A stretch of 64,000 nt of DNA from a virus, in IMG/VR virus record IMGVR_UViG_3300045970_000455, positions 1 through 64,000 of that record. One strand, 5' to 3'. Position numbers and translations under genes: made by a program. Every line of letters begins with the position of its first letter. The first letter of the stretch is position 1. Below are positions 7,032 through 28,562 of the stretch, one piece after another. The notes below the pieces were generated by a model, which saw only the letters and a list, made by a program, of their open reading frames with translations, made no database searches and was not told where the DNA came from.

Positions 7032-8099
7032 TTATGTTGTTTCGTATTTAGATTTGAGTAAGGGCATAAACTGCTGTGCATTATTGCCTATCTTTGTCAG
7101 CGCCCACCTGCCACAGAATTTCATAAAAAATATGCCTATATCAACTGATGCTACATTTTTTCTACCTGTTGTTTCAGCTATTACAATAAGACATTCTTCT
7201 TTTATGTTATCAGGAATCTGCGACAAATCAATGAGCAACCTGTTTAGGTTATATTTATCTTTCACAATGTGCTCTTTTTCGTTGTGATCTATCCATTTCT
7301 GTAACATAAAGTTGTTCCAGTTATACCCTTTATTGTTATCATTATACGCTTCTCGAATGCCAACAGCAGTCTTTGTGCCCTTTTCACGCACACCGGGATA
7401 TGCGCTGAAAATGTTATCAGTCTTATCTCCGCGTATGCATTTAAGAAATAATGCATAGTTATACCAATCGGGGTCGCACACAAATGTTGGGTTAGGTTTT
7501 CCTACCTTGATCTTTGCTGTTGAATCGATTTTGAATTCCAACCGTTTTCCGTTATCATCGTGTATGCCGTCCCGTGTAATACGAATGTCTTTTATAGGAT
7601 CATATATGGTTAGGTTAGGTAACTTTAACAGTTGATAAAAGTCTGAGTCAGAACTAATAAGGATGTGAGTATCTTCGGGATGAGCCTCAATGAATACAGC
7701 AATCATATCATCAGCCTCGGTGTTAGGATTTCTTAACACTGTTATGTTAGTTTGCTGATCAATGAAGTCGACTAAATCGTCGTAAGCGCCCGTTAAAATT
7801 TCGCGGTTTTCTTGCTCTTTTTCAGTCATAGCATCGTAGATCTCCGCACGATTAGCTTTATACGCGGGATATACTTTTTTACGCCACGAATGGCCTTCTA
7901 AATAAAATACAGCATGATCGGCTTTGAATGTGGTCCATTCTTTTTTCATACTATACAGTATAAGATGTAACGCCATTCCTATAGCACTATCTATTCCGAG
8001 TGCAGGATTAGTCATTCTAATCTGCCTATGAAAAAGATTGGCGCCGTCGATATGCAGAAAGATTTTCTTTTTATTGATATTCATGTGACTACTTGACAT
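7032..8099 (-). CDS. rnh: T4-like RNase H / 5'-3' flap exonuclease
   Basis: IDGAN, SWRK..YPAYKANR, EADD, SSDSDFYQL, GDKTDNI motifs. Confidence 0.9.
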   Translation of the reverse strand: MSSSHMNINKKKIFLHIDGANLFHRQIRMTNPALGIDSAIGMALHLILYSMKKEWTTFKADHAVFYLEGHSWRKKVYPAYKANRAEIYDAMTEKEQENREILTGAYDDLVDFIDQQTNITVLRNPNTEADDMIAVFIEAHPEDTHILISSDSDFYQLLKLPNLTIYDPIKDIRITRDGIHDDNGKRLEFKIDSTAKIKVGKPNPTFVCDPDWYNYALFLKCIRGDKTDNIFSAYPGVREKGTKTAVGIREAYNDNNKGYNWNNFMLQKWIDHNEKEHIVKDKYNLNRLLIDLSQIPDNIKEECLIVIAETTGRKNVASVDIGIFFMKFCGRWALTKIGNNAQQFMPLLKSKYETT

Positions 8100-21398: not shown

Positions 21399-21400
21399 TA

Positions 21401-21730
21401 TTATACAGCGAAACTCTGTCCGCAACCACATGTTGAGCTGCTGTTTGGGTTTTGTATTACAAACTGAGAACTCATTAGTTCTTCTTTATAGCTTACAGTA
21501 GATCCTACCAAATATTGATAGCTCATGGCATCCACAATAATAGTGACTCCGTCTTTTACTATTTCTGTATCATCCTCGGCTACTTCTTTATCAAAAGTAA
21601 AACCATAAGAAAATCCCTGGCATCCACCACCTTGCACAAATATCCTAAGTTTCTGTTCGGGGTCGCCGTCATCTATTATGAGGTCACGTATTTTGTTTAT
21701 TGCCGAATCTGCGAATACGATTGGTTCCAT
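21401..21730 (-). CDS. erpA: A-type Fe-S carrier ErpA/IscA
   Basis: [14 protein letters not shown]...TCGCGQSF. Confidence 0.92.
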
Positions 21731-22104
21731 TAACGTGTTTTCCTATAATCTGCTATGGCTGCTTTAACAGCATCCTCTGCCAATATGCTACAATGTATTT
21801 TTACGGGTGGTAGGGCTAATTCTTCCGCTATTTCTGAATTTTTAATAGTAGCTGCTTGACCTACAGTCTTGCCTTTAACCCATTCTGTCACTAAACTGGA
21901 TGAAGCAATCGCTGAACCACACCCATAGGCCTTGAACTTTGCATCAGTAATGATTTCATCTTCTACCTTTATTTGTAGGCACAAAACATCTCCGCATGCC
22001 GGGCTCCCTACCATTCCTGTTCCTACAGTAGGATCTCCCTTTTCAAACTTTCCAACATTACGAGGATTATTATAGTGATCCAACACTTTTTCGGAATATG
22101 CCAT
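21730..22104 (-). CDS. iscU: Fe-S scaffold IscU
   Basis: [37 protein letters not shown]. Confidence 0.96.
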
Positions 22105-22685
22105 TATAGCCTCCCGTAAGCATTACCTGTCAGTGGTTCGTTTGTTCCGTGATACGCTTTATCGTCATATCCGTGTATAGGAGATAATATACCTTCTCTT
22201 TCAGTCTTTGATTGTGTGTTATCTGTGAATCGATACATTTGGTCTGGCATAACACGCTTAAACCATTCTGCTACCATAGGGCGCACATCACGGTTAGGTT
22301 CCGTGTCTTCCAATATACGCAACTCATCCGAGAATGCATCATCCTTGATAATATCTTGCAAGAATACTTCTGCAACACACGCCGGAATAGGTCTTGACAT
22401 AATCTCTTCCACTAAGTCAAAATCTTCGTTTGATATAGGTAGCTTATGAATGGCTTCCATAACCTTTATTTCATTTATACTTTCTATTGTAGCTTTTAAC
22501 TCTGTATAATCTTTACGCAGTTCTTTTTGTAAAAGCCCTTTTTTCGCTTTCGGAGTAGATGGGTCGCCAATCATATCTACATATTTGTCCATGCGTTGTT
22601 GTAAGGCGTTTAGGTTGGCTATCTTCTTTTTAGATAGACTTTTATCGTTCATCCCCTTCGGTAATAATAGTTCTAAGATTTTCAT
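22104..22685 (-). CDS. Hypothetical, probable virion protein (MKILELL...)
   Basis: End of a late cluster. Confidence 0.65.
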   Translation of the reverse strand: MKILELLLPKGMNDKSLSKKKIANLNALQQRMDKYVDMIGDPSTPKAKKGLLQKELRKDYTELKATIESINEIKVMEAIHKLPISNEDFDLVEEIMSRPIPACVAEVFLQDIIKDDAFSDELRILEDTEPNRDVRPMVAEWFKRVMPDQMYRFTDNTQSKTEREGILSPIHGYDDKAYHGTNEPLTGNAYGRL

Positions 22686-23143
22686 TATGAATACACTATC
22701 ACAACAATACCACTACCACCGTTTCCACCCAGCGCTGATGCACCGCCCCAAATGTAACCGTTGCCGCCACCACCGCCACCTTGATTAGTTAAACCTGCTG
22801 CGCCAGGATTAGCAGCACCACTATTGCCCCCATCTCCGCCGCCTGTACCTGCTGTACCACCCAGGTGAAATCCATTATCGCCGGTACCGCCACCACCGCC
22901 ACCGCAACCTGTAAAAATATATCCTACCGCAGTGGATAAAATAGACATTCCTGCTCCACCATTCTTGCCGCTACCAGCAGATACGGCGCCACCGCCCCCG
23001 CCACCGTATTGATTTTCTAAACCAAGACCGCCATCGTTACCTTGGCCTACGTAGCCATCACCGACGGTGCCGCCATTAAAATAAGGTGTTCTGCCGCCAC
23101 CACTACCGCCTGGTTTTCCGCTTATTCCTGTACCTGTTGTCAT
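22685..23143 (-). CDS. C-terminal half of a glycine-rich adhesin domain
   Basis: GQGNDGG, GGGGGA, NQGGGGG, GGSGIVVIVY; GGAG SD. Confidence 0.8.
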   Translation of the reverse strand: MTTGTGISGKPGGSGGGRTPYFNGGTVGDGYVGQGNDGGLGLENQYGGGGGGAVSAGSGKNGGAGMSILSTAVGYIFTGCGGGGGGTGDNGFHLGGTAGTGGGDGGNSGAANPGAAGLTNQGGGGGGNGYIWGGASALGGNGGSGIVVIVYS

Positions 23144-23156
23144 TATTTACTCCGAA

Positions 23157-24149
23157 TTAGTTCACTGTGTCGGGTTCTTTCTTAAGATTATGACTTAACA
23201 AACCATTGTTCACGTATGTGTGAGCGTCCTTGACGGTGATCTTGATTACTTCGCCACGATTGTATTTTGAAACACTAACTACCGCATTCGGAACTGATGG
23301 TCCTATTAGCATATCACTTGGTTTGAGAAGCGACAGTTGAACCTGTGTACCATCAACCATGAACATCGGATGATTGAACGATGCCGTTAGTGTCCTGCCG
23401 TTTTCCATTGTCAGCACCCAACGATCGTTGACATCTGGTGTAACTGCCTCAACCTCGAACGAACCCCATACACCTGTTGTTTCGTGTCTTGTCCACACAT
23501 ATTGACCTGCTTGAAGCATGTCTGCTCTAACCCATGACTGATTGGCAAGAAGAATCATTTCCCATGGCGCTGGGCAACCGCCACTGCCGCCACCCCCGCC
23601 ACCCCCGAGGCCGCCACCAGATACCACTGTTGCTACATCGCCACCGCCACCCCCGCCGCCATATGCTATAGCGGTACTGTTAAACGAGGATGATACACCA
23701 TCTGCCCCCTGAACGTTGAGCCCTGATGCTGCGCCGCCTGCGCCTACGACAATCGGTATTACGGCCCCGGGCGTAACGCTTAGTGTTGTATGAACATAAC
23801 CACCTGCTCCACCTCCACCTCCACCTTCTAGTGTACCTATACTGCCACCTGATCCACCGCCACCTACTGTTAAAACTTCAACTGATGTAACCCCTGCAGG
23901 AACAGTCCAACTTTGGCTAGATGTAAATGTCTGGCTAAAATATTTAGATGCTCCGTGGAAGCTATCAAGACTAAGTGCTCCGCTTGTTGGTACAAAAGTG
24001 CTTGCACCGTGTGGTGATCCTTTTATAAACGACTTCACGTATGTCCCATTACGATACAGTTGTGACAAAGAAACGGGTGTGCCAGGTACTGAAAATTCAG
24101 TGCCTATAGCAGATAATGATATTGAGTTTGGATATACCGGTAATGTCAT
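23157..24149 (-). CDS. Tail-fibre adhesin: N-terminal docking domain, N-half of a Gly-rich domain, C-terminal Hint domain
   Basis: SISLSAIGTEF..SLSQLY; FTSSQSWTVPAGVTSVEVL; GG/CPAPW...TASFNHP...TYVNNGLLSHN. Confidence 0.85.
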   Translation of the reverse strand: MTLPVYPNSISLSAIGTEFSVPGTPVSLSQLYRNGTYVKSFIKGSPHGASTFVPTSGALSLDSFHGASKYFSQTFTSSQSWTVPAGVTSVEVLTVGGGGSGGSIGTLEGGGGGGAGGYVHTTLSVTPGAVIPIVVGAGGAASGLNVQGADGVSSSFNSTAIAYGGGGGGGDVATVVSGGGLGGGGGGGSGGCPAPWEMILLANQSWVRADMLQAGQYVWTRHETTGVWGSFEVEAVTPDVNDRWVLTMENGRTLTASFNHPMFMVDGTQVQLSLLKPSDMLIGPSVPNAVVSVSKYNRGEVIKITVKDAHTYVNNGLLSHNLKKEPDTVN

Positions 24150-24152
24150 GTT

Positions 24153-24518
24153 TTATCCTAATAACGGGCGAATAACTTCTACCCAACTAATCGTATTCTC
24201 GTCCCACTTATACACTTTTCCATCTACAGGCAAATCAACAGGTGCTGCCCACTGACATGTATTTTCATTTAATACCCAACTATTATATGGTTTTGGCGGA
24301 ATAAATGCATCCCTATCAGCATCATACTTAAATCCTATGCCTGCATAGTTCTTCCTAAATGGTGTTCCACCCAACTTATGCTCTCCGCATAATGTGTTGT
24401 AACTTGTTTGGAACCATGTGGCAGGATCGCCTACGGCACCAGAATCTATAAAATCTTGTTCAGCAACAATAACCTGTGTAACTATATTATTGTTATCTAT
24501 ACATGCATAATGGCTCAT
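24153..24518 (-). CDS. Tail-fibre-associated conserved protein
   Basis: QTSYN, FRKNYAGIG.YD..RDAFIPPKPY.SW motif; ATAAATA upstream. Confidence 0.7.
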   Translation of the reverse strand: MSHYACIDNNNIVTQVIVAEQDFIDSGAVGDPATWFQTSYNTLCGEHKLGGTPFRKNYAGIGFKYDADRDAFIPPKPYNSWVLNENTCQWAAPVDLPVDGKVYKWDENTISWVEVIRPLLG

Positions 24519-24566
24519 ATTTAAAATCCTCTTATTGTATTTATCATATTAGACACCACAGCCAAA

Positions 24567-24596
24567 AGAAAAGGGACCGTAGTCCCCTATCTTTTT
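24567..24596 (-). terminator. Rho-independent terminator
   Basis: GGGAC-TACG-GTCCC followed by a T-tract on the minus strand. Confidence 0.75.
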
Positions 24597-24604
24597 AGTT
24601 TTGT

Positions 24605-24970
24605 TTAGATACTAAACTGTTCAGCTACAGACTTAGGTACTAAATCCATATTGAGTTCTTTTGCCTTACCGATAACAGCCGGCAAAACAAAATACATGCC
24701 CGGCATTGCAACTAATGCAGCAAACGATGTTGCCTTCACGAGTTCTTTTGCCTTTTCATTTGCTGCTGCGATGTCCTTTGGTGTAGCATCACCTGTCATT
24801 GCTTTTTGATACACTTTTGTCATTTCTTGAGCATTTGCATACTCCGTGGTAACAATAGTTTGTACCTTTTCAAACACATCTTTTGCATCCTTTGGTGTCT
24901 TTGGGATTGCATCGAACATGTCGTTGATTGATTTGAGAAAAGCCTGAGGGGTTTTGATTGATGTAAACAT
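24605..24970 (-). CDS. Helical protein with hydrophobic hairpin (LETM1-like or phasin-like, uncertain)
   Basis: Monocistronic, AAAGGA SD, own terminator. Confidence 0.6.
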   Translation of the reverse strand: MFTSIKTPQAFLKSINDMFDAIPKTPKDAKDVFEKVQTIVTTEYANAQEMTKVYQKAMTGDATPKDIAAANEKAKELVKATSFAALVAMPGMYFVLPAVIGKAKELNMDLVPKSVAEQFSI

Positions 24971-25090
24971 TTTATTTCCTTTATATGAGTGCCACTATTG
25001 GCCACTATGCTATGTTCTGCCTCACTATGAGCACAGACTTATGCAGTATATTACTTATCAAAAAATGTTGCAACCGCACATTTTATTGGT

Positions 25091-25393
25091 TTAATCCTTA
25101 GTCTTTTCAATCTTATCGTCTTTATCCGCACCGCCCTCTTCCAAATATACCTTTGCTTGATGCGCTCTTGTAGTGTCTCTCGTATCTAAAAACTTGTTTA
25201 ATGTTTGAGACCCTGTACCGTATGCAAGATATGCGATAAAATAATCAACGCTCATTCCACCCAATAAAATAAGTTTCCACATAAACACTGTTGCGGCTAT
25301 TGCTACCACCATAGCAATAATCCTTGCATGTGAATATTGGCCTGTGGCATTATCCTTTATTGAGTCATTTAGGATTTTTACTACTCTATTCAT
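25091..25393 (-). CDS. Two-TM membrane protein, holin-like
   Basis: YSHARIIAMVV hydrophobic helices and charged C-tail. Confidence 0.5.
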   Translation of the reverse strand: MNRVVKILNDSIKDNATGQYSHARIIAMVVAIAATVFMWKLILLGGMSVDYFIAYLAYGTGSQTLNKFLDTRDTTRAHQAKVYLEEGGADKDDKIEKTKD

Positions 25394-25394
25394 T

Positions 25395-28300
25395 TTAGAT
25401 CTTATACTCCACAAATACCGTGCATGTTGCACCAGCTGTTCCTGCTGTGCTTGCTACTGTTGCAAATCCTTGTATAGCTGAACCTTCATCCACGTATGTA
25501 TCTGCAATATATAAACCAATAACCTGTGGATTATTTTCAGTATCTTTCATATACTTGTTTGTTGTGCCAGTAACACCTACCACAACTGTTGCTGCTGTGT
25601 CAGCTATTGTTACATTTATCCTTGTTCTTAATATTGTGCTACCTGCAGGGAATGTTGCTGGTAGATTTGTTACACCGTTTGTATTCAATGGCACTGTTAC
25701 TGTCATTGACTTGATAACATCGCCTGCCGCTATAACAGACGCAATCTGGTCATCAACATATTTCTTATTGGGGATTGCAAGATCGCCTGTGGTTACAACA
25801 TTAGCAGAATATGCTGCCGCTGATAAACCTGCTACAGTAAGCACATTGCTGGTTGCAGCGCCAAAAGAAACTACAATGTTACCGTTGGTGGTTGTAAGTG
25901 TTATTGCACCTGTTGTTGCAGCAACATCTAAACTTGTGGATCCTGTTATTGTGCGTGTAGAACCGTTTGCGGTAATACCGCCCACTACCAAACTTGTTCC
26001 GTTATAAGTTAGTGTGCTGGCAGATGCGATAGGGGAAGTTCCGTTACCATATAGTAACTGTGTTGCTGCAAAAGTTGCTGCGCCAGTACCGCCATTACCT
26101 ACCGGTAATGTTCCTGTTACATCAGTTGTTAAATCAACTTGGCTGAAACTAACTGTCGTACCGTTTGTTCTTAATACCCTGCTTGCAACTGCGCCAGATA
26201 CCCAACTTGCTACGCCTGTAGCACTTGTTACCAATGTAGATGTATTTGCTGTAGCTAACTTATTCCATGTATTGCCTGCTGCACCAACAAGTAAGTCTCC
26301 TACCGCTGTTGTAGCATAACCAGTACCGCCGTATGTAGCACCAACAGTGTTTAATGTTATTGCACCACTTGTTGCAGTAAACGATGTCGAGTTGAAACTT
26401 GCAACACCCTTTGTAGTGGTTGTTGCATTAGCTACGGTAATATCTACACCACCTGTACCTGTACCTGTTTGTGTTATTGTAGAAACACCTTGTGCTGCGT
26501 CACCTGTGATTGTTAGTTCTTCACCTAAGTTTAATACCTGTACCGTACCACTATCGCCACTAATGTGTATATGATTATTTACAATCATTGCATTAGTGAT
26601 GCCACCCGCCTTAACAAATAATCCTGCAGAACCCTGATCTAAACCGCCTGTTGCAGTAGTATCTAATAATAAATGTAATGCTGCTGCTGTTGTAGGGAAA
26701 CCACCACCTGCTACATCTCGTGATGTACCATTGGTAGTCAATATAATAGCGCCGGTGGTGGTGTTATATAAATCAACGCCAACTTCATCAGTTGGCAACT
26801 GTGCTATACCTGCACCTAAGTTAACATTAACTGTGTTTCCTGATATTATAAGTCCTGTACCCCATGTATATGCATTTGAGCCTGAAAACTGTACCCATGT
26901 AACATCTGATGTACCAACAGTTACAACAGCCAGAGTTTCTGTCCATCCTGTGTCATGCGCCGCTGTGCCATTTGACACAAATATCGATGCATTTTGAAAC
27001 TCTGATATTTGATCTTGGTCTGTTGCACGAGTTAATATCCAGTTTGTAGATGTGCTACCAATACTTGTTACTGTGTAAATACCATTCTGTGCTAAGGTAC
27101 CCTGATTCTTAACCAACACTCTGTTACCGACTGATAGTGTTACACCATCTATAACGAAAGTTAATGTTTGGGCACCTGCATTTGTTAATGTTGCCCCTAC
27201 ACCTGCTGTTCCATTGGCATATGTTGCTGTTAATGCCACATCGGTAGCTGCTGCAACTGCGTTTTTCCATGTTAATCCTGCCGCAACGGAATCAACATAT
27301 GCCTTATTCGCTGCATCTGTATCTGCTGTAGGCGTCGGTAATCCTTTTACAGTTCCTGTACCTGCGAATGTCAACGATGCATTTGTTGACATTGTGTCGC
27401 CGGATACATTTACATATGTTGCATCAACTAACCCTGTTATGTCTGCTGTTGCTACTGCTACCGAATTTGTTACGCGACCATATGTATCTGTTGTTATCTT
27501 GACAAAAGACCCACCATTGCCCGGATTTGTAACAGTTGCTAAATCAATGGTAGTGCTTGCCGCTACACCCGATCCATTGCTGACAGAAATATTACCTGCT
27601 GTTCCTGCAATGGAGCCTGTCTGCCATGTTCCGTCACCTGTACGAATAGCATAACCTGTTGTTGATAAACCTTCTAACCCTGCTAAGTCATTAGCAAGTG
27701 CCAGTGTAGGAGCGCCTGCAACACCGTCACCATTTGATATTGTAATACCTGCTGCTGGTGCAGTAATAGTCACAGAAGTATATGTGTCATTGCCTGTCTG
27801 AACTAATATACCCGTTGTTGTCTTTATTGCCAACGCTGCTAAACCAGCATCATACCCCTGAACACCAGATGTTGCACCCGGTGCACCTGTTACCCAGTTT
27901 GTGCCATTCGAGTATATAACATTACCTGTCGTACCCGGTGCAAGCAATTCTTCAAGCGTATTATGTCCGTCAACATAGGTAGCCAAGTTGTTTAATGCTA
28001 CAGTTAAGTCTGCCGGAGTTGTTCCGTATATTGTGGTATTTGTTAGTGCTGTATTATTCCATACACCTACGTTGCTTACCATAGAACCGAGCGATGTTTC
28101 TATAGCGTTTACTTCATTTTGTAATGCGGTGGCATCTCCACCTGTTGCCACCGTCATCCATGTTGTGCCATTATAAAATTCTAGGGTAGTTGTTGCAGGA
28201 GCATCGTTATTAAGGCGCACCATACCCGTGCTTGCTGATGGGCGTGCGGCTGTATTGCCTGTTGGCAGTAATACCGCTGCTGATCCTGAAATTTGTGGTA

Positions 28301-28562
28301 CATTGGCTGCGAAAAGCTGTAATACATCTGTACCGCCTATTGTGGCTTTAGCGCCTGCTGCCGTAAGAACTAGATTACCTGTTGTTAAAGCTACATTACC
28401 AGAGGATGATATAATACCTGCTGCGGTTAATGCTGCGTCAGTTGAACCATCAACTGCCTTTAAGTTAAATGTGCCGGTGGTATGTTTTAATCTGGGACCT
28501 GCCTTACCTAGTTGTAGATCCGGTGATACCCCATATAAACCATAGTTGTATGTATTTGCCAT
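25395..28562 (-). CDS. Large virion structural / tail-fibre protein
   Basis: Thr/Gly/Ala-rich; DAANKAYVD, RVLVKNQ...QNGIY, LPVGNGGTG motifs; ATAAATA upstream. Confidence 0.8.
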   Translation of the reverse strand: MANTYNYGLYGVSPDLQLGKAGPRLKHTTGTFNLKAVDGSTDAALTAAGIISSSGNVALTTGNLVLTAAGAKATIGGTDVLQLFAANVPQISGSAAVLLPTGNTAARPSASTGMVRLNNDAPATTTLEFYNGTTWMTVATGGDATALQNEVNAIETSLGSMVSNVGVWNNTALTNTTIYGTTPADLTVALNNLATYVDGHNTLEELLAPGTTGNVIYSNGTNWVTGAPGATSGVQGYDAGLAALAIKTTTGILVQTGNDTYTSVTITAPAAGITISNGDGVAGAPTLALANDLAGLEGLSTTGYAIRTGDGTWQTGSIAGTAGNISVSNGSGVAASTTIDLATVTNPGNGGSFVKITTDTYGRVTNSVAVATADITGLVDATYVNVSGDTMSTNASLTFAGTGTVKGLPTPTADTDAANKAYVDSVAAGLTWKNAVAAATDVALTATYANGTAGVGATLTNAGAQTLTFVIDGVTLSVGNRVLVKNQGTLAQNGIYTVTSIGSTSTNWILTRATDQDQISEFQNASIFVSNGTAAHDTGWTETLAVVTVGTSDVTWVQFSGSNAYTWGTGLIISGNTVNVNLGAGIAQLPTDEVGVDLYNTTTGAIILTTNGTSRDVAGGGFPTTAAALHLLLDTTATGGLDQGSAGLFVKAGGITNAMIVNNHIHISGDSGTVQVLNLGEELTITGDAAQGVSTITQTGTGTGGVDITVANATTTTKGVASFNSTSFTATSGAITLNTVGATYGGTGYATTAVGDLLVGAAGNTWNKLATANTSTLVTSATGVASWVSGAVASRVLRTNGTTVSFSQVDLTTDVTGTLPVGNGGTGAATFAATQLLYGNGTSPIASASTLTYNGTSLVVGGITANGSTRTITGSTSLDVAATTGAITLTTTNGNIVVSFGAATSNVLTVAGLSAAAYSANVVTTGDLAIPNKKYVDDQIASVIAAGDVIKSMTVTVPLNTNGVTNLPATFPAGSTILRTRINVTIADTAATVVVGVTGTTNKYMKDTENNPQVIGLYIADTYVDEGSAIQGFATVASTAGTAGATCTVFVEYKI

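Follow-up and report, generated by a model that had tools for sequence, protein, structure and literature searches.

A glycine-rich phage domain encoded in two halves, with a Hint domain at the break

The window analyzed here is a stretch of 64,000 nucleotides, positions 1 to 64,000 of the IMG/VR virus record IMGVR_UViG_3300045970_000455; the source record is a 75.9-kb contig of an uncultured phage from a pond metagenome, with an estimated completeness of ∼20%. On the minus strand of the window, two adjacent open reading frames (ORFs), ORF A and ORF B, encode the contiguous halves of one glycine-rich domain, and in ORF A the first half is followed by a Hint domain. We consider it about an even chance (probability of roughly 0.5) that insertion of, or recombination with, a Hint cassette produced a gene in pieces, that the Hint domain cuts itself off and that the two halves assemble non-covalently. 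Self-cleavage with non-covalent assembly had been offered as the second choice by an initial annotation of this DNA; it is now the best-supported reading. What that annotation had described at the locus was found again in every detail, all on the minus strand and at the same positions:

ORF A, 23157–24149, minus: 330 residues; conserved N-terminus, first Gly-rich half, Gly linker, Hint domain and 9-residue tail
N-terminal region of ORF A, residues 1–70 (MTLPVYPNSISLSAIGTEF...), 23940–24149, minus: common to the intact homologues P0003–P0007
First Gly_rich_2 half (TNF-like plus polyglycine lattice), residues 73–191, 23577–23933, minus: assigned by Pfam and by a custom hidden Markov model (HMM)
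Hint domain, residues 192–321, 23187–23576, minus: Cys1 in CPAPWE, block B SFNH, block F DAHTY, block G LSHN
C-flank LKKEPDTVN and TAA stop, 23157–23186, minus: short tail of the kind usual in the Hint family, Lys being at +2 and +3
Spacer of 13 nt, 23144–23156, minus: carries the Shine-Dalgarno (SD) sequence GGAG (23153–23150), 6 nt ahead of the ORF B start
ORF B, 22685–23143, minus: 152 residues; second Gly-rich half, ending in GGSGIVVIVY, the terminal strand of the glycine-rich family

Two halves of one glycine-rich domain

In order of translation, ORF A reads MTLPVYPNSISLS..., FTSSQSWTVPAGVTSVEVLTVGGGG... and ...AIAYGGGGGGGDVATVVSGGGLGGGGGGGSGG up to Cys192 (CPAPWE; codon 23576–23574), continues through the Hint domain to ...KITVKDAHTYVNNGLLSHN, which ends with Asn321 (His320-Asn321 codons 23192–23187), and stops with the TAA at 23159–23157. 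The last ∼19 residues of its first half (residues 173–191, VATVVSGGGLGGGGGGGSGG) serve as a linker, and they duplicate the loop and the GGSGGG motif of ORF B. ORF B starts at the ATG at 23143 with MTTGTGISGKPGG, which is glycine-rich domain sequence; its stop codon overlaps the ATG of the next gene (ORF 22104–22685) as TAATG. The frame of ORF B differs from that of ORF A and one in-frame TAA lies 3 nt upstream of its ATG, therefore the two ORFs cannot be merged by frameshifting or by an alternative start. Merging through frameshift or read-through was rejected, with stops present in both frames. One translational hop of the T4 gene 60 style was rejected as well: only a trivial ACA/ACA codon match is available, and the product would still carry Leu at +1.

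It is scarcely credible that the stop and the change of frame were created by assembly or sequencing. Although the locus comes from a single IMG/VR metagenome contig, an independent 51-kb Logan contig (depth 15) shows 0 differences over 21400–25600, and identical fragments are present in a second pond study; the split is therefore not an assembly error. No variants were seen among the reads and contigs of the locus. With stops in both frames, a single indel cannot join the ORFs, and the LKKEPDTVN tail with its stop is typical of the Hint family described below.

ORF A matches the Pfam family Gly_rich_2 (PF21722) with 62.3 bits (E=8.8e-17, cut-off 24.3), over profile positions 3–118 of 226 only. 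ORF B alone has no Pfam match. The complete Gly_rich_2 domain is thus not present on one polypeptide at this locus, the rest being supplied by ORF B: in PHROG 2295, ORF A covers positions 540–705 and ORF B covers positions 692–846 (E=1.8e-10 for ORF B), and in a custom whole-domain HMM of 258 positions, they lie at 2–118 and 105–255, respectively. Half-specific profiles were built from 61 intact domains and scored with HMMER bias correction and 200 composition-preserving shuffles. ORF A residues 72–191 gave 92.9 bits (z=28) with the first-half profile and 1.5 bits with the second-half profile; ORF B gave 35.8 bits (z=14) with the second-half profile and −39.7 bits (z=1.4) with the first-half profile. 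The continuation of the ORF A domain in ORF B, behind the GGAG sequence, is no artefact of composition.

Among 5.8 billion clustered proteins, ORF A matches nothing other than itself. For the glycine-rich domain, 274 homologues were found, many of them uninterrupted, and the comparison with such homologues that the initial annotation had proposed was run. Residues 1–204 of P0003, an intact homologue of 367 residues, align with A(1–191) at 47.6% identity, the conserved N-terminal region being shared, and its residues 192–362 align with B(4–149); dozens of other homologues likewise align end to end with A(1–191) plus ORF B. The N-terminal region of ORF A is probably the virion-docking part. As the P0003 gene adjoins a homologue of the 24153–24518 ORF (PHROG 7759) in two other viral contigs, P0003 gives a reasonable picture of the unsplit state. 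The pairwise alignments of ORF A and ORF B to the homologues were run with masking off. Default BLASTP (SEG and composition adjustment) found no match between ORF B and P0003 or P0079, because the glycine runs were masked, and it was replaced by the bias-corrected HMM and shuffle test. Against the phage collection, tblastn found no match for ORF B, and for ORF A only terminase mini-inteins, which matched via the Hint domain. ORF B keeps every family-invariant glycine and every other invariant position.

The AlphaFold2 (AF2) model of P0003 has a mean predicted local distance difference test (pLDDT) score of 75, with values >90 in the sandwich. It matches the tail tip of mycobacteriophage Bxb1 (9d93), the fibre of cyanophage Pam3 (7ypx) and the glycine-rich domain of ALK/LTK. 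No PDB relative of the glycine-rich domain is detectable by sequence; the fold relatives 9d93 and 7ypx are solved structures. The Pam3 protein gp24 has a single receptor-binding unit, built from the TNF-like sandwich together with the lattice of glycine-rich loops, and its distal tips are variable (PMC9608196). In the P0003 model, one and the same sandwich holds the first strands, which correspond to ORF A, and the last strand GGSGIVVIVY, which corresponds to ORF B.

The complex of A(1–191) with ORF B was predicted with a co-folding score of 0.90, and the best of three controls scored 0.00. Of 80 solved complexes, 58 attained this level, as did 2 of 110 mismatched pairs; the calibration is only rough here because own alignments were used. 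The prediction runs have at least 90% of contacts in common, the pLDDT of the partner is at least 86, and there are ∼410 confident contacts. The predicted complex reaches a pLDDT of 85–88, compared with 75 for the intact homologue model; with an unrelated partner, the pLDDT of chain 1 falls from 85 to 62. ORF B residues 142–152 are predicted to pair with residues 74–75 and 91–98 of ORF A, and the two halves would thus be interwoven. The predicted interface includes ORF B residues 6–21 and leaves ORF A residues 173–191 outside. Taken together, the half-specific profiles and co-folding agree with the initial annotation in placing contiguous halves of a single domain on the two ORFs.

The Hint domain and its phage family

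The Hint module is 130 residues in length. Its AF2 model, in which the tail of 9 residues is disordered, has a pLDDT of 93.5. Template modelling (TM) scores are 0.83–0.86 to BIL2 (6y75), DnaB mini-inteins and the BIL domain 2lwy, and 0.79–0.86 over the whole set of BIL2, DnaB, gp41-1 and RecA inteins, BIL 2lwy and Hedgehog (1at0); the model has a confident HINT fold. One profile built from 14 relatives was used for the PDB search; it matches mini-inteins at 1.4e-10, with gp41-1 as the best PDB sequence match, BIL 2lwy at 1.3e-6 and BIL2 at 3.7e-5. No Pfam model reaches its threshold for this domain (Intein_splicing, 23.5 bits with a cut-off of 35.8; PT-HINT, 17.9 with a cut-off of 27.7), and TIGR01443, the intein C-terminal region, lies just above its own (16.5, cut-off 15.6). 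The catalytic set is complete: Cys192, the block B SFNH, whose His is invariant in the alignment of relatives, and the likewise invariant His320-Asn321. The N-terminal nucleophile and the block B (T/S)xxH of the HINT superfamily are both present. The Hint domain of the initial annotation is real, with all of its catalytic residues.

Like class 1 inteins, the domain ends with His-Asn, but the +1 residue is Leu322 in place of Cys, Ser or Thr, and the gathering score of Intein_splicing is not reached; canonical cis-splicing is excluded, as had been concluded from the sequence. Both canonical and split inteins were rejected as descriptions of the module: Leu occupies +1, the stop follows nine residues later, and blocks F and G (DAHTY...LSHN), which a split intein would have on the second gene, are located on ORF A, ORF B being devoid of the intein C-fragment (IntC). 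A Hedgehog-type module, in which a sterol- or adduct-recognition region comes after the Hint and Asn cyclization is absent, does not fit either, with only 9 disordered residues after the Hint domain and a conserved His-Asn. The signature of type A BIL domains is present, namely Cys1, a C-terminal His-Asn, no +1 nucleophile and a non-housekeeping, variable host protein; the type A BIL sequence models match it remotely, PT-HINT staying below its cut-off and the profile match to 2lwy being weaker than that to mini-inteins. Read from its sequence, the Hint domain is an intact BIL-type module and no broken intein.

An exhaustive search of 1.84 billion representatives identified 509 relatives of this Hint domain at E≤1e-3. 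None of the libraries searched names the family, and we found no paper describing this Hint family on phage tail proteins. Residues were counted over the 145 best representatives in which the His-Asn end is clear. Cys1 was seen in 134 of 134 relatives, and the −1 residue is mostly Gly. Cys never occupies +1 (0/145), and Ser or Thr does so in 12/145; Lys is found at +1 or +2 after His-Asn in 139/145, in terminal and internal copies alike (representatives P0121–P0269; loci L003–L080). This nearly invariant Lys could be an isopeptide-forming nucleophile, as in BIL2, which would cap or cross-link tail proteins. Internal copies read SHN/K[ST]P, followed by Pro-rich linkers. In 74 of the 145, the Hint domain is located at the extreme C-terminus, with a tail of 2–15 residues (AKPR, LKPRT, IKTMN and others); tails similar to LKKEPDTVN are those of L001 (...SHN/LKMLREPIAE and stop), P0160 (LKPATEVDR) and L055 (LKQINQVDD). 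The host proteins in 78 viral loci are tail or baseplate proteins, among them Phage-tail_3 with Rcc01698_C, DUF4815 and one 883-residue tail protein ending with ...GLLSHNLKMLREPIAE and a stop.

Because a terminal Hint domain with an xK tail and a stop is the norm in this family, the stop of ORF A came with the module. Compared with its relatives, LKKEPDTVN plus stop is how a terminal-type module natively ends, rather than an intein-extein junction altered by mutation. GGSGG/CPAPWE is also the junction of P0121, which at 57% identity is the closest relative; a search of viral and metagenome contigs did not find the P0121 locus. Of the 150 best representatives of the family, only the protein studied here joins Gly_rich_2 to this Hint, and it is specific to this locus, the only case in that set, that the Hint interrupts a single interwoven receptor-binding domain.

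Several arrangements in the family deserve mention in their own right. In P0128, P0133, L042 and P0147, Hint domains occur in tandem or a second Hint starts directly after the first (SHN/LVGKGGGCPDPE..., SHN/VKFIGGGGCVALES...), and they read as arrays of self-cutting modules. The terminal Hints of L051, L053, L058, L060, L061, L069, L070 and L072 match the profile in two pieces (∼16–110 and ∼128–159); they are a shortened variant without part of the domain middle. In L013–L017 (3926–5677), L006 and L043 (3944–7123), tail or baseplate genes with a terminal Hint are followed within 3–18 nt by an ORF of 583–1059 residues; in L043, the first gene encodes a DUF4815 protein ending in this Hint and the ORF behind it is 1059 residues in length. 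Such pairs may be further split virion genes. Positions 23446–23495 of the window (the QYVWTRHETTGVWG region of the Hint domain) have a 50-nt match with 7 differences in other contigs (6.6 kb and 3.5 kb) in both of the pond metagenomes, which indicates that other carriers of this Hint family live in the same communities.

Origin of the split and fate of the halves

ORF A residues 171–185 (DVATVVSGGGLGGGG) and ORF B residues 3–17 (TGTGISGKPGGSGGG) share the same alignment columns, which consist of a variable loop and the near-invariant GGSGGG. About 15 residues are thus present twice, and the copy in ORF A runs on as the linker to Cys192. Over 61 homologues, the similarity profiles of the two halves are uncorrelated (Spearman rho −0.07, compared with a median of 0.37 for intact proteins; third lowest of 61), which is a weak hint from sequence that the halves come from different parental genes. 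The ancestor would have been a single-chain tail-fibre tip of ∼360 residues, similar to P0003, with an N-terminal docking region and one TNF-like/polyglycine receptor-binding domain. A Hint-tipped tail gene probably recombined with a glycine-rich fibre gene at GGSGG-coding DNA, a stretch common to the Hint linker and the GGSGGG motif of the domain; we consider precise homing less likely. The recombination would have put a terminal-type, BIL-like cassette, consisting of the Gly linker, the Hint domain, the xK tail and the stop, in the middle of the domain, and the remainder of the domain would be translated as ORF B from its own SD sequence and ATG.

The overlap and the uncorrelated profiles bear also on the possibility that the ORFs encode two independent proteins. 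Residues 1–191 would then act alone after cleavage, or the Hint domain would be kept as a structural or reactive tip, and ORF B would be a separate, unpaired protein. Different origins of the halves are compatible with this view, and the loop and GGSGGG are found once in each ORF. However, neither half contains a complete β-sandwich, its first and last strands are located on different ORFs and are predicted to pair, and confidence in each half drops when the partner is unrelated; we regard independence of the two proteins as very improbable.

In the reading we prefer, that of a gene in pieces, ORF A and ORF B would be produced from one transcript. An N-S acyl shift would then form a thioester at the Gly191–Cys192 bond, and the Hint domain would remove itself, either by hydrolysis or through capture by the amine or Lys of its own C-flank after cyclization of Asn321, for which type A BILs and BIL2 provide precedents. 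The freed fragment 1–191 and ORF B would co-fold non-covalently, forming the complete domain as a fibre tip. By analogy with these systems, and given the conserved His-Asn and +1/+2 Lys, the thioester may be resolved through the C-flank of the module itself, by aminolysis through the α-amine after Asn cyclization, as in type A BILs, or by Lys capture, as in BIL2; fragment 1–191 would in that case be left capped with a short tail. ORF B looks expressed because it has a canonical SD sequence and ATG, a TAATG overlap and all the invariant glycines.

Several points weigh against this reading. All of the steps proposed, including cleavage, expression of ORF B and assembly, are ones that we infer. 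The co-folding result would mean that a complementary fold is still encoded, not that the halves bind each other in the cell, and halves of split genes tend to pass such predictions because single-chain relatives exist, in this case 9d93 and 7ypx, which are related in fold. Moreover, the phage is a singleton. In the DNA, neither a target-site duplication nor flanking repeats were found beyond repeats of Gly codons, and the ∼15-residue overlap and the uncorrelated half profiles do not fit well with a simple, clean insertion.

Another reading is that of a decaying remnant, in which the cassette truncated a fibre gene, ORF B is a still-open but functionless frame, and ORF A works via another part or is inert. 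The phage has no diverged relatives with the split, no other of the 150 best representatives joins Gly_rich_2 to the Hint, chance alone keeps GGN-rich frames open, and another large fibre gene in the window (25395–28562) might suffice. Against decay stand the GGAG sequence 6 nt ahead of ORF B, its ATG exactly at the opening of the frame and the TAATG junction, a combination unlikely for a random remnant; all of the family-invariant positions are intact, the complex is predicted with no less confidence than the intact model, and the sequence is unchanged in two pond samples. On balance, we consider the remnant unlikely.

The initial annotation had favored another outcome, in which Thr2 of ORF B, after removal of Met, attacks the Hint thioester and rebuilds the adhesin in trans, making the tip swappable. 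In its general form, the Hint domain would act as a one-shot ligase: complementation of the halves would bring the Gly191 thioester, on a flexible linker of ∼19 residues, to an amine of ORF B, the tip would be stitched covalently into a single polypeptide, and the Hint would be released. The α-amine of Met1 or Thr2, the Thr2 Oγ followed by an O-N shift, and Lys10 are the possible nucleophiles. Type A BILs do ligate their flanks through a free α-amine without any side-chain nucleophile (PMC4031507), and BIL2, one of the best matches in structure, passes its N-flank on to Lys residues in other proteins (PMC8616854). The predicted geometry would allow the reaction, as ORF B residues 6–21 are in the fold and ORF A residues 173–191 are free.

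The family gives no support to such ligation. Terminal-type members have unrelated downstream genes: in 30-odd distinct viral loci, these are diverse, start with MA, MG, MI, MN, MS, MQ or ML and share no N-terminal residue that could act as a common nucleophile. Most members, L001 for example, have no second half at all. A Hint domain followed by a hydrophobic residue, Lys, a short tail and a stop is the normal architecture (74/145 terminal), found on unrelated phage tail and baseplate proteins. ORF B lacks an IntC-like docking segment, the C-flank Lys of the Hint itself (139/145) is a closer, competing nucleophile, and the ligated product would have an extra loop of ∼20 residues compared with the intact homologues. 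Lys10 as a specially acquired nucleophile was set aside, since its position is variable in the family (K 5/25, R 3/25) and nothing can be drawn from it. We therefore regard covalent re-joining as improbable, whichever amine is considered. There is no specific support for a swappable tip, both halves building the same β-sandwich and glycine lattice.

Gene neighbourhood and comparison with known systems

The split tip genes sit inside a fibre gene cluster. Just upstream, a 1055-residue Ala/Thr/Gly-rich ORF (25395–28562, minus) looks like a long tail-fibre shaft protein. Next to ORF A on its upstream side, a 121-residue ORF (24153–24518, minus) belongs to PHROG 7759 (E=3e-36). The PHROG 7759 homologues downstream of intact P0003 are located at 7116–7562 in L082 and 4774–5220 in L081, with ∼40% identity. 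This conserved pairing with a fibre gene resembles the fibre/chaperone pair gp24/gp25 of Pam3, and by analogy the PHROG 7759 protein is a candidate fibre assembly factor. Between the DNA polymerase gene and the fibre genes, two small ORFs (21401–22104, minus) look by eye like IscA/HesB-type and IscU/NifU-type proteins; read from their translations alone, they are candidate iron-sulfur cluster assembly proteins.

If the gene-in-pieces reading is true, an interwoven TNF-like/polyglycine receptor-binding fold tolerates being encoded in two pieces, which bears on the evolution and engineering of the host-range modules of phages. The large, unnamed Hint family has candidate roles as self-removing chaperone, C-terminal cap or covalent cross-linker. 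The locus is also a compact two-gene test case, as hydrolysis, Lys capture and trans-ligation predict different masses. Should ligation turn out to be true, the locus would represent natural protein ligation in trans with the complete Hint on one partner and docking provided by the exteins, a new natural route with clear value as a tool.

Through the homology and model of P0003, A(1–191) plus ORF B belongs to the same fold class as the glycine-rich tips of Pam3 gp24 (7ypx), Bxb1 (9d93) and Gly_rich_2 proteins. The Pam3 and Bxb1 tips are single chains, whereas the domain here is divided between two ORFs, with the break falling within the glycine lattice.

The Hint domain shares its fold with type A BIL domains (Amitai 2003; Dassa 2004), represented by that of Clostridium thermocellum (2lwy; TM 0.84), as well as Cys1, the block B His, the C-terminal His-Asn, the lack of Cys, Ser or Thr at +1, and variable surface-protein hosts. 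For type A BILs, cleavage and possible amine-mediated ligation through a free α-amine have been described (PMC4031507, citing Dassa 2004 and Aranko 2013), and the same outcome might be expected here by analogy. Different from type A BILs, to which it has remote sequence similarity only, the family is phage-borne, half of it is located at the extreme C-terminus with a tail of 2–15 residues, and the +1/+2 Lys is nearly invariant. BIL2 of Tetrahymena thermophila BUBL1 (6y75/6tmm) is among the best structural matches, with TM 0.83–0.84 at 15–16% identity. In BIL2, a Lys amine, located either in the C-flank or in another protein, resolves the thioester and an isopeptide results (PMC8616854), and the conserved C-flank Lys of the phage family invites the suggestion of similar chemistry. 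Unlike the phage Hint, BIL2 is eukaryotic and flanked by ubiquitin-like domains.

Split inteins of the DnaE and gp41-1 type also have their host protein on two genes with intein sequence at the break, as here. In contrast to them, the Hint domain is complete on ORF A and IntC is missing from ORF B; Asn321 is followed by nine residues and a stop, with no nucleophile at +1. The gene-in-pieces reading also resembles the case of nrdA in the T4-like phage Aeh1, which is reportedly split by mobE, the mobile insertion giving two ORFs whose products reassemble non-covalently. In Aeh1, the two halves are separated by a homing endonuclease gene that is free-standing, whereas the insert described here is translated within the first half and could excise itself at the protein level.

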